From a virus (taxonomy: Duplodnaviria > Heunggongvirae > Uroviricota > Caudoviricetes): DNA of 44,065 nucleotides. Within the stretch, counting starts at the first letter, position 1. Each line of letters starts with the position of its first letter. The translations under genes were made by a program, and so were the position numbers. Location: the IMG/VR virus record IMGVR_UViG_2778261088_000003; one strand, 5' to 3'. Below, one piece after another: positions 12,100 to 13,290 of the stretch. The notes beneath the pieces are model-generated. The model searched no databases. It worked only from the letters and a program-made list of their open reading frames with translations, and was not told where the DNA came from.

Positions 12100-12159
12100 A
12101 AGAGCATTCCTGGTGGACCTGTAGATTGGGATATGAACCCGTTACAGGAGAATGCTCTT
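12100..12159. repeat. hairpin element A (10-bp stem around a conserved 25-nt core)
   Basis: Stem AAGAGCATTC / GAATGCTCTT; core GTAGATTGGGATATGAACCCGTTAC at 12121-12145. Confidence 0.5.
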
Positions 12160-12358
12160 ACCTGTTACGTGCTCCGTTTCGTGGAGCTAACGGCGGGTGA
12201 TCGGGCCGCACCAGACTGGACTTATTTCAGCGTTATGCTCATGCCAGAGAATCGAACTGTGATGGTCGGTGCTGAACTCCGACACAGGGTTGTAGCAAGC
12301 CCCGCAAAGCGCGCACTACTGTAGTTGCGGCACATCAGCCTGTGCATTCACCACAATG

Positions 12359-12438
12359 TTGAGAACACTGGTTGTCACGCTGCAACGCAACATTTATTCG
12401 TAGATTGGGATATGACCCCGTTACGCCAGTGTTCTCAA
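12359..12438. repeat. hairpin element A' (13-bp stem around the same core)
   Basis: Stem TTGAGAACACTGG / CCAGTGTTCTCAA; core GTAGATTGGGATATGACCCCGTTAC at 12400-12424 (24/25 identical to A). Confidence 0.5.
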
Positions 12439-12590
12439 CGTTGTAGTGCCGGTTACGGTTCCGGCCAGGCCTCTTCCTCAACGGGGTGTTCTCCATACGG
12501 ACTACCGTTTATTGGTCGTTCCTGCGGTTTATGTTGTGAAGCCAGATGCTTATCTTCTGGTTGCTTCAAAGAGCTGCACTTCATCACAAC

Positions 12591-12664
12591 GGTAAGGGTA
12601 CTTCGTAGGGATTCGAACCCTCTGCCAAGCTCGGCGATCTCCGACGTCGCAAAATACCCTTACC
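12591..12664 (-). other. degenerate tRNA-like hairpin (not a canonical tRNA)
   Basis: Contains GGGTTCGAATCCC T-arm-like motif closed by a 10-bp terminal stem (GGTAAGGGTA / TACCCTTACC); no D-arm or anticodon arm can be folded. Confidence 0.3.
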
Positions 12665-12672
12665 TGTTGTGC

Positions 12673-12748
12673 TGGTGCCGATTAACGGACTCGAACCGCT
12701 GACATCCTGCTTACAAGGCAGGCGCTCTACCAACTGAGCTAAACCGGC
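12673..12748 (-). tRNA. tRNA-Thr (anticodon UGU)
   Basis: Full cloverleaf: acceptor GCCGGTT/AATCGGC, D-arm GCTCAGTTGGTAGAGC, anticodon loop CTTGTAA, T-loop TTCGAGT, CCA encoded. Confidence 0.9.
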
Positions 12749-12750
12749 AT

Positions 12751-12826
12751 TGGCGATGGTGGATGGATTTGAACCATCGACCCGTTGATTAACAGTCAAC
12801 CGCTCTAACCGCTGAGCTACACCATC
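12751..12826 (-). tRNA. tRNA-Asn (anticodon GUU)
   Basis: Acceptor GATGGTG/CACCATC, anticodon loop CTGTTAA, T-loop TTCAAAT, CCA encoded; only 2 nt from tRNA-Thr. Confidence 0.9.
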
Positions 12827-13290
12827 ACTTGCCGGGTACGTCTCCGGCGAGGGCTTCCACCTCCGTATGCTTTTCGGCGCACCGCGCCCTGGCTGCAATT
12901 CGGTAACAGGGGATGCACAACCCTGGCTTCCAGCGTGATTAGCGCCTTCAGCATGACGGGATATACCCGTAAATTCGTGGAACTGTACCCAAAGTGCTGT
13001 TAAGCACCGCTGTTACGCTGAAAAGAAGACGCAACAGGAAAGGACGCTGACCAACAGATGGCCCCTTCTCGTTCATCTGGTTAATCACACCAGCGCCCTT
13101 ACCTGTTGTGCCTCCCCGTTCCCTAATACACAGACGGGGACACTCTGCGGTCGATTTTTTGACGGGGGACGACTCATACCCCGTGGCGTCTGGCTTCTTA
13201 GGCCGCTACCATCATCAGATCATCGTTTGCATTTACTTTAATGGTCGGGTTCTAAACCGCCGCAAAGTCGCTAACCATGACGAAAACCCT

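Follow-up and report, generated by a model that had tools for sequence, protein, structure and literature searches.

A recurrent hairpin stem in the ban operon leader of a P1-like phage belongs to a widespread phage RNA family and is a candidate RNase III processing site

What does a 16-nt sequence do that recurs in the leader of a phage operon, each time at the edge of a structured element? The sequence in question lies in a viral DNA of 44,065 nucleotides (IMG/VR record IMGVR_UViG_2778261088_000003; the whole stretch is called the window here) that comes from a P1-like phage (Punavirus); its region 11900-13500 matches P1, P7, D6, SJ46, and their relatives at 94 to 99%. The P1 annotation was carried over to the window by offset (window = L001 + 10566, where L numbers denote comparison loci). 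It places the motif region in the noncoding leader, about 1.5 kb long, of the ban operon, which is transcribed from the minus strand. The first-pass annotation of this region, made from the sequence alone, had described three copies of the motif, each heading a structured element, and had proposed a repeated module that might be a processing or recombination signal associated with a decayed tRNA. We report that the motif is one strand of a hairpin stem, here called the type-1 stem, that encloses variable inserts and recurs in many phages. With moderate confidence, we regard this stem as a conserved processing site in phage polycistronic RNA, most likely for host RNase III.

A sequence search confirmed both exact copies of the motif, CCCTTACCTGTTGTGC, at 12657-12672 and 13096-13111. 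The variant CTTACCTGTTACGTGC at 12157-12172 also was confirmed; it is the same motif with a 2-base insertion, and a search allowing 3 mismatches misses it because of that insertion. An exact direct 16-mer repeat within 1 kb appeared in 1.5% of dinucleotide-preserving shuffles of the window, and a second, independent 16-mer repeat (12121/12400) is present within the same kilobase. The motif is real rather than a product of chance. It also recurs in the homologous regions of P1, P7, D6, SJ46, and Ro157c2YLVW. Two elements of the first-pass description had to be revised. Minus-strand folding revealed that the motif is not a tag immediately 5' of the structures but the 5' strand of each hairpin stem, and there are not three copies but four, the more diverged copy GCACTACAACGTTGAGAACACTGG at 12449..12426 having been overlooked. 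The 3' strands are conserved also (..CTCTTWCC-GTTGYGRTGAAT; repeat family D1). We designate the four hairpins A to D (Table 1).

All four hairpins start with GCAC and share one architecture: a basal helix of 6 to 8 bp, a bulge of one base (a purine), 2 bp, usually a 1x1 mismatch, and at least 10 bp, giving a total of about 20 to 22 bp. The number of paired positions is 19 to 22, with one bulge and one mismatch, in hairpins A to D as well as in the members from lambda, Qin, BUCT554, and Sasha introduced below, and all of these form the intramolecular helix of about 20-22 bp that is typical of an RNase III substrate. Folding z-scores against shuffled sequences were -3.7 (A), -4.9 (B), -4.3 (C), and -5.2 (D), and the predicted fold of hairpin D has an energy of -50.2 kcal/mol. 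The upper stem of hairpin B is fully compensated relative to that of hairpin A, and the two share a 25-nt loop motif, GTAACGGGKTCATATCCCAATCTAC (repeat family D3). A covariance model of the arms, R1, scored hairpin A at 23.2 bits (E 1.6e-4) and hairpin D at 16.7 bits; hairpins C and B scored weakly because the model penalizes large inserts.

We also noted a repeat, GTAGATTGGGATATGA(A/C)CCCGTTAC, at 12121-12145 and 12400-12424 within the inserts of hairpins A and B. On the minus strand it forms a small conserved hairpin, GUAAC-GGG-7 nt-CCC-AAUCUAC, and a covarying relative, GUGAC-GGGCCCAUAACCC-AAUCCAC, was observed in loci L018, L035, L042, and L085.

Known families did not account for the hairpins. 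Rfam scans of the leader and of 139 kb of comparable loci returned no family for them, the matches being tRNAs, DicF, and one int-alpA RNA only. A literature search by sequence strings and keywords found no description of the stem family, as far as could be retrieved. Integron attC-like core sites were considered and rejected, as the sequences do not fit GTTRRRY. Mimicry of CRISPR repeats or by anti-CRISPR RNA also was considered; we noticed no likeness to the enterobacterial repeats, although no search was aimed at this.

The stem was found far beyond P1. A scan of IMG/VR with a pattern for the 3' arm detected it, nearly identical in sequence, in at least 120 viral contigs. Enterobacter phage BUCT554 carries the same stem with other inserts; in a Klebsiella lambdoid phage the stem lies between a Q-like gene and a holin, downstream of a tRNA; and in Salmonella phage Sasha it lies between capsid and tail genes. 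A further locus (L029) has the order Q-like antiterminator, tRNAs, hairpin, type-2 module (see below), and holin. All loci examined, which are a small sample, together contain 197 elements with 95 distinct inserts, and these fall into 62 (hence at least 62) unrelated clusters of 33 to 176 nt. The arms are about 90% conserved around these unrelated inserts. Wherever annotation is available, the hairpin is on the transcribed strand of a long operon.

A scan of one bacterial genome per species revealed complete elements in Yersinia, Rahnella, Klebsiella, Pantoea, Kluyvera, Citrobacter, Enterobacter, Rouxiella, Acerihabitans, and Escherichia coli. The scan gave 101 exact matches, of which about 59 lack the 3' arm and are likely due to chance (the rough expectation for a 17-mer is about 70) and about 22 are attributed to lambda contamination. 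Phage lambda itself has a near-consensus type-1 hairpin at 44784-44864 (L233 985-1065), right behind the 6S RNA terminator tR' in the leader of the late operon. The annotated lambda orf-64 (44621-44815) overlaps tR' and the start of this hairpin. The roughly 22 identical lambda copies come from unrelated assemblies (Pseudoxanthomonas, Shewanella, Paenibacillus, and others), in which the contigs carrying them have low coverage, and look like contaminating lambda DNA; the loci concerned include L136, L138, L140, L149, and about 18 more. A diverged member with the same architecture was found in E. coli K-12 prophage Qin, upstream of dicF.

In order to determine whether the stem is maintained as a helix, we aligned 35 arm-only stem sequences from different phages and compared them with 500 shuffles and with slid registers. 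Pairing was preserved in 95.6% of cells, and double compensatory changes were present in 11 of the 18 pairs. None of the 500 shuffles reached the observed values of pairing and compensation, and the slid registers came nowhere near them. The column of the 1x1 mismatch was unpaired in 23 of the 35 stems. The same pattern is seen among close relatives: hairpin D of D6 and SJ46 carries a compensatory change from C-G to U-A, and its 1x1 mismatch stays a mismatch (U.U to C.A). G-U pairs are frequent, and therefore only the transcribed strand can form the helix. Taken together with the constant orientation to transcription, these pairs point to a function at the RNA level.

The same data bear on a DNA-level explanation, in which the arms are terminal inverted repeats of a miniature mobile element or linkers for cassette exchange and the RNA hairpin is a by-product. 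Conserved arms around unrelated inserts are what such an element would display, and there are signs of exchange: the same insert occurs in different scaffolds (P7 hairpin A' and the lambda type-2 closure), and the number of modules varies among P1 relatives, with OP279344, RCS47, and JL22 carrying an extra hairpin pair (H1-H2). In SJ46 (L006 ~820-905) a hybrid module joins the 5' half of B to the 3' half of A via the common 25-nt loop, with everything between the two halves deleted, the footprint of recombination between module copies. However, on the opposite strand the G-U pairs become A-C mismatches, the orientation is always that of transcription, and compensatory changes preserve the pairing. 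Target-site duplications were not seen flanking the arms, and the 3' junction is fixed (GTGAAT...). When compared with miniature inverted-repeat transposable elements and palindromic repeats, the family has the inverted arms but not the shared interior, the occurrence in both orientations, or the duplications. We consider a DNA-level role unlikely, and exchange at the arms is probably real as a route by which the family diversifies rather than as its function. The earlier suggestion of a recombination signal agrees with the SJ46 hybrid, but the G-U pairs and the constant orientation favor the RNA level.

Other differences among the P1 relatives concern the inserts. P7 and Ro157c2YLVW keep the stem of hairpin C with a different insert, and hairpin A of Ro157c2YLVW lacks the small T-loop-like hairpin. 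Modules identical to hairpin A are present in many P1-like contigs of IMG/VR.

An indication of what acts on the stem comes from Qin. A 2023 study (PMC10448788), in agreement with Faubladier et al. 1990, mapped the 5' end of a 190-nt DicF species by primer extension and showed that it depends on RNase III, being lost from an rnc mutant. A distance of 190 nt upstream of the annotated 3' end and terminator of dicF corresponds to K-12 position ~1649245, which is inside the 3' strand of the Qin hairpin. In vivo rules for RNase III state that the two positions between the staggered cuts are paired, usually with a G-C pair (PMC6212723). The helix length of about 22 bp agrees with these rules. With cuts placed by analogy to Qin, so that the exact site is approximate, the pairs between the cuts are G-C and C-G in Qin, and the consensus includes a C-G pair. 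The position of the DicF 5' end in a homologous hairpin, together with the helix length, favors the RNase III processing stem. We also count for it that hairpins stand directly 3' of the CCA of tRNA-Thr and, in P7 and D6, of tRNA-Ser. The Q-dependent late transcript of lambda contains the type-1 hairpin of that phage. Daniels et al. (1988, Virology 167:568), according to their title, reported RNase III processing sites in the Q-mediated late transcript of lambda. Cleavage of the Qin member by RNase III is supported by homology to published experiments, and from it we infer cleavage of the P1 copies. Of the original idea of a repeated processing module, the processing role is favored, and the unit has changed: it is a hairpin with two conserved strands around a variable insert.

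We propose that a double-strand-specific enzyme, most likely host RNase III, would cut within the type-1 stems. The four stems would punctuate the ban leader transcribed from the C1-controlled promoter Pban, and the cuts would separate a promoter-proximal dicF-like RNA, the tRNA-Asn/tRNA-Thr pair, several small modules of structured RNA, and the mRNA tciABC-tRNA-Ile-ban. If placed as in Qin, the cuts would fall near 5'-..AAGAG^CAUU..-3' and 5'-..AUGCU^CUUU..-3', which in hairpin A correspond to approximately 12155/12154 and 12103/12102. Such cuts also would free the variable apical inserts as small stem-closed RNAs, in the way that rRNA stems free 16S and 23S rRNA. After cleavage, the shared 3' strand GUUGUGGUG could re-pair with the downstream strand CACCACAAC and so close the next module.

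Several points weigh against this proposal. Cleavage in P1 is argued by analogy, and the 1988 lambda sites need not coincide with the lambda hairpin. The Qin site was set by transcript length (190 nt, give or take a few nucleotides), in the member that has diverged most. Copies with large inserts are detected weakly by model R1. Pairing in the basal helix is in competition with the helix that closes the next module, and the fold inside the cell may therefore be dynamic. Finally, an enzyme that needs as little sequence specificity as RNase III does not by itself account for arms that are nearly identical across unrelated phages around inserts that are completely replaced. This near-identity suggests an additional sequence-specific partner, frequent recombination or cassette exchange through the arms, or both.

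A sequence-specific partner is central to another explanation, in which the stems serve, like the Y RNA stem for Ro60, as the binding site of a particular host or phage protein that is not RNase III, and the inserts are effectors or decoys that titrate tRNA- or rRNA-directed enzymes or defense nucleases. Sequence conservation in both arms goes far beyond what a simple duplex would need. Canonical T-arm hairpins are present in 6 of the 62 insert clusters, with 0.1 expected; the insert of hairpin C has a D-arm-like hairpin and a T-arm, like the tRNA-like domain of YrlA, and one type-2 insert family resembles 16S rRNA nt 254-282. On the other hand, the Ro motif GNCGAAN0-1G is absent, the YrlA model matches true tRNAs only, and no candidate protein is consistently encoded beside the arrays. 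We judge a protein scaffold or decoy to be improbable as the primary role, though a little less so than the DNA-level one; it is compatible with processing by RNase III and does not exclude it.

Stable hairpins in an operon leader, with a 3' strand that has two alternative partners, also could be read as terminators, attenuators, or put-like antitermination RNA controlling read-through into tciA-ban. A scan for intrinsic terminators found no U-tract 3' of hairpins A to D, and its sole site in the leader was the hairpin at 13319..13290. Moreover, the stem also occurs between structural genes in Sasha, and no Rfam cis-regulatory family was matched. Such control is, in our estimate, very unlikely. 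The RNase III processing stem remains the reading that we favor.

We next consider the element at 12591-12664, which had been described as tRNA-like. Hairpin C begins at the first base past the CCA of tRNA-Thr, and the element is its apical insert. The features reported for it are present: a T-arm-like hairpin, GGGTTCGAATCCC, and a terminal stem, which extends over 10 to 13 bp (12591-12603 with 12652-12664). The statement that it cannot be folded into a cloverleaf likewise was borne out, as it consists of a D-arm-like hairpin, GCGA-CGUCGGAGA-UCGC, and a T-arm, GGGUUCGAAUCCC, without an anticodon arm. Neither ARAGORN nor the Rfam tRNA model called it, even at E values up to 10. A member of the tRNA family (RF00005/ARAGORN) would fold into a cloverleaf, in which a 7-bp acceptor stem is joined by D, anticodon, and T arms, and would score above the Rfam threshold of 29 bits; the element does not. 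When 12591-12664 was scanned alone, the best scores were 14.9 bits for mascRNA and 14.6 bits for tRNA-Sec (threshold, 47).

The insert of hairpin C occurs in the same stem, with a covarying stem extension, in Enterobacter phage BUCT554 and in loci L063 and L106. Its retention in these unrelated phages favors a selected mimic of the tRNA elbow, composed of the D-arm-like hairpin and the T-arm, over a decaying gene. More generally, turnover of the tRNA cluster might have left the hairpins behind as decayed tRNA genes or tRNA-associated repeats with no function of their own. They do abut tRNA 3' ends, a tRNA lies within 700 nt at 47 of 128 loci, some inserts have T-arms, and the tRNA set varies among relatives. 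Yet 56 of the 62 insert clusters have no T-arm, the stem is unrelated to acceptor stems and is kept where arrays lack a tRNA (lambda, BUCT554, and Sasha), and the hairpin C insert is conserved with covariation across unrelated phages. The same stem holds at least 62 unrelated inserts, of which the tRNA-like element is a single case, and so the notion of a decayed tRNA fails for the family as a whole. The tRNA-relic reading is already disfavored, and we hold it to be quite improbable.

P7 and D6 carry a real tRNA-Ser(UGA), and a variant hairpin starts right behind its CCA, as hairpin C does after tRNA-Thr. This tRNA (P7, L004 1105-1192; D6, L005 1110-1196) is absent from the window; it scores 46.6 bits with the Rfam tRNA-Sec model (threshold, 47), and the D6 record lists it as left unassigned by tRNAscan-SE. 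The tRNA set of the ban leader varies further, with Tyr in Ro157c2YLVW, Ser in P7 and D6, and Arg, Gly, and Phe in IMG/VR contigs.

Other modules adjoin the hairpins. The hairpin 3' strand GUUGUGGUG doubles as the 5' strand of the next module, which is closed by the downstream strand CACCACAAC. This closing helix covaries across loci; the pairs GUUGUGGUG/CACCACAA, GUUGCGGUG/CACCGCAA, GUUGUGAUG/CAUCACAA, and GUUGUGCUG/CAGCACAA (the last being the lambda sequence) were found in 24, 13, 5, and 3 distinct cases, respectively. The bases GUUGYGRUG (12088-12096, 12349-12357, and 12582-12590, minus strand) can therefore pair with either of two strands, their own 5' arm or the one that closes the next module, and covariation is seen for both. 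This alternative pairing may be a refolding switch set off by cleavage.

The type-2 modules have constant ends and variable interiors. That of the window (12259..12357) has the conserved terminal hairpins GCACAGGCUGAUGUGC and UCGGAGUUCAGCACCGA. The terminal loops of these modules are complementary (GCUGAU/AUCAGC). Of 66 modules from other loci, about 61 have 5 or more contiguous loop-loop pairs, and doubly compensated versions occur (GUCGAU/UUCGAC and ACUGAU/UUCAGU), which suggests a conserved loop-loop contact. One type-2 insert family (..AGCTAGATGGTGAGGTAATGGCTCACCATGGCGACGA..; L043, L047, L056, L058, L110, and L116) shares 26 of 29 bases with nt 254-282 of E. coli 16S rRNA (BLAST against the E. 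coli rrn operon, E 3e-4), and the changes preserve the helix. It may be a mimic of an rRNA helix. The general idea that inserts copy host rRNA was rejected, as comparison of the arrays with the rrn operon gave this one short 16S-like match only.

The module after hairpin A gave a match to STnc100 (RF02076) on 11979-12094 of 43 bits, below the threshold of 47 and covering model positions 31-147 of 206 only. This STnc100-like element is a variant of the type-2 frame; Qin also has it, in the interval from dicF to dicB. The type-3 module matches Sashavirus, P22-like, and SSU5-like phages and recurs 20 nt past type-1 hairpins in the module maps. These maps display a fixed grammar of tRNAs, type-1 hairpins, type-2 and type-3 modules, and DicF-like small RNAs.

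The features of the ban leader are collected in Table 1. After tciA, the order is tciB, tciC, tRNA-Ile(CAU), and ban, by transfer of the P1 annotation. The region behind Pban resembles the Qin sequence upstream of dicF and is followed by a strong terminator-like hairpin (GCCCATCTTCGGGTGGGC and T6). This arrangement predicts a C1-controlled small RNA of about 170 to 190 nt, running from Pban to the terminator-like hairpin, that would be like the long form of DicF with another 3' hairpin.

Table 1. Features of the ban leader in the window, in order of minus-strand transcription
Feature	Position	Strand	Basis and details
Pban with C1 operator Op72	~13507..13478	-	P1 annotation; transcription unit start 13282..13507
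dicF-like region	13383..13282	-	P1 annotation; resembles region upstream of dicF in Qin
Terminator-like hairpin with T6 tail	13319..13290	-	Terminator scan
Hairpin D (type-1 stem)	13111..13028	-	5' arm 13111..13091 GCACAACAGGTAAGGGCGCTG with motif copy 3; 3' arm 13049..13028 CAGCGTCCTTTCCTGTTGCGTC
tRNA-Asn(GUU)	12826..12751	-	ARAGORN; Rfam 74.5 bits; between hairpins D and C
tRNA-Thr(UGU)	12748..12673	-	ARAGORN; Rfam 72.9 bits; between hairpins D and C
Hairpin C (type-1 stem)	12672..12582	-	5' arm 12672..12655 with motif copy 2; 3' arm 12601..12582
Type-3 module, short	12533..12590	-	Closed by GUUGUGAUG...CUUCACAAC; joined directly to 3' arm of hairpin C
Hairpin B (diverged type-1 stem)	12449..12349	-	5' arm 12449..12426 GCACTACAACGTTGAGAACACTGG; 3' arm 12371..12349; inverted repeat I1
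Type-2 module	12259..12357	-	Closed by AUUGUGGUG...CAUCACAG; 5' strand shared with 3' arm of hairpin B
Hairpin A (type-1 stem)	12172..12088	-	5' arm 12172..12150 with motif copy 1 (2-nt insertion variant); 3' arm 12109..12088
STnc100-like module (type-2 variant)	11978..12096	-	Closed by GUUGCGGUG...CACCGCAA; 5' strand shared with 3' arm of hairpin A; just upstream of tciA
tciA (TerB family)	11507..11941	-	Pfam TerB E 2e-14 and P1 annotation; first protein gene after the noncoding array

The P1 reference records place two plus-strand genes, upl (12133-12324) and plp (12325-12702), opposite the noncoding array, and their annotation is the basis for reading the repeats as parts of protein-coding sequence. 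Against this, the plp open reading frame overlaps tRNA-Thr on the other strand, Pfam gave no match for upl or plp, and in P7, D6, and SJ46 the region has been replaced or deleted; some P1 annotations omit both genes. Conservation tracks RNA helices rather than codons. A coding explanation is scarcely credible, and upl and plp are probably not genes.

Elsewhere in the window we noted a match to the sok antitoxin RNA at 28820-28994 (minus strand, 114.9 bits) and the P1 immI C4 antisense RNA with its a1/b1 targets at 32443-32649 (minus strand). Repeats of GATGTGTGCTGGAGGGAA, presumably the P1 replication iterons, are clustered in both orientations at 19379-20670. An exact direct repeat of about 100 bp with 300-bp spacing is present at 43653-44050, and a 16-mer, AAATTTATTAGAGCAA, is common to the Pban operator (13489) and position 31048.

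A broader idea, which we offer as speculative and rather doubtful, is that temperate enterobacterial phages share a universal small-RNA "expression cassette". In it, a constant stem cleavable by RNase III and chained type-2 frames would carry hypervariable RNAs, such as the tRNA-elbow and rRNA-helix mimics, that act as decoys or modulators of host RNA-directed enzymes or antiphage nucleases and are diversified through the arms. If true, the cassette would be the RNA counterpart of protein "morons" and antidefense islands. Whatever the fate of this idea, an anonymous P1 repeat joins a family with textbook loci, the late leader of lambda and the dicF precursor site of Qin. The stem family offers a possible explanation for the release of the ban-leader tRNAs and small RNAs, and the long-standing P1 annotations upl and plp are put in doubt. 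Its architecture of a constant stem and variable inserts has no counterpart in Rfam, and a small sample gave at least 62 insert families. Should these inserts be functional, they would be a large unexplored reservoir of phage small RNAs for which the conserved stem provides a simple handle.

Among known systems, the Y RNA YrlA (RF02553) resembles hairpin C in its long terminal stem and its domain mimicking D and T arms, and it also occurs in phages. Y RNAs of this kind carry the Ro-binding motif GNCGAAN0-1G close to their 5' end (PMC4201824). Here, in contrast, that motif and a neighboring rsr gene are lacking, and most inserts are not tRNA-like. Assignment of the hairpins to the Y RNAs was rejected, as the Ro motif is absent from the arms and the sole RF02553 match, of 25.6 bits (threshold, 69), fell on the tRNA-Asn/Thr pair. 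STnc100 and PasD have one structure with differing seed regions (bioRxiv 10.64898/2026.05.13.724894). The type-1 family follows the same logic of a constant frame and a variable interior, and the module after hairpin A is a subthreshold match to RF02076. Unlike the motif-bearing hairpin, however, the STnc100-like element is the adjoining type of module, and the Rfam model covers neither.

The RNase III signals R0.3 to R1.3 of the T7 early region and the stems of rRNA operons are mismatch-bearing hairpins or helices at which polycistronic transcripts are processed. The T7 signals share with the type-1 stems the repetition of hairpins with an internal mismatch that divide a transcript, but they have no variable cargo; the rRNA stems share a helix that encloses a stable RNA cargo. 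Neither has sequence similarity to the type-1 stem. In the type-1 family, conservation of the arms extends over unrelated phage families, and the 3' strand also serves the next module. The lambda late transcript has a near-consensus type-1 hairpin, in a late-gene leader rather than a ban operon. The closest parallel is the RNase III site of Qin dicBF, which has the same succession of 7 bp, bulge, 2 bp, 1x1 mismatch, and at least 10 bp, the same GUUGUGG 3' strand and AAC/AAG core, and the same setting in a phage polycistronic leader beside a small RNA and an STnc100-like element. It differs in that its arms are about 65% identical to the consensus, its insert is another one, and it was published as a single site. 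Single RNase III sites are known in Qin and probably in lambda; for the stem family, its four copies in the ban leader, and the design of a constant stem around a hypervariable insert, no description was found in Rfam or in the retrievable literature.

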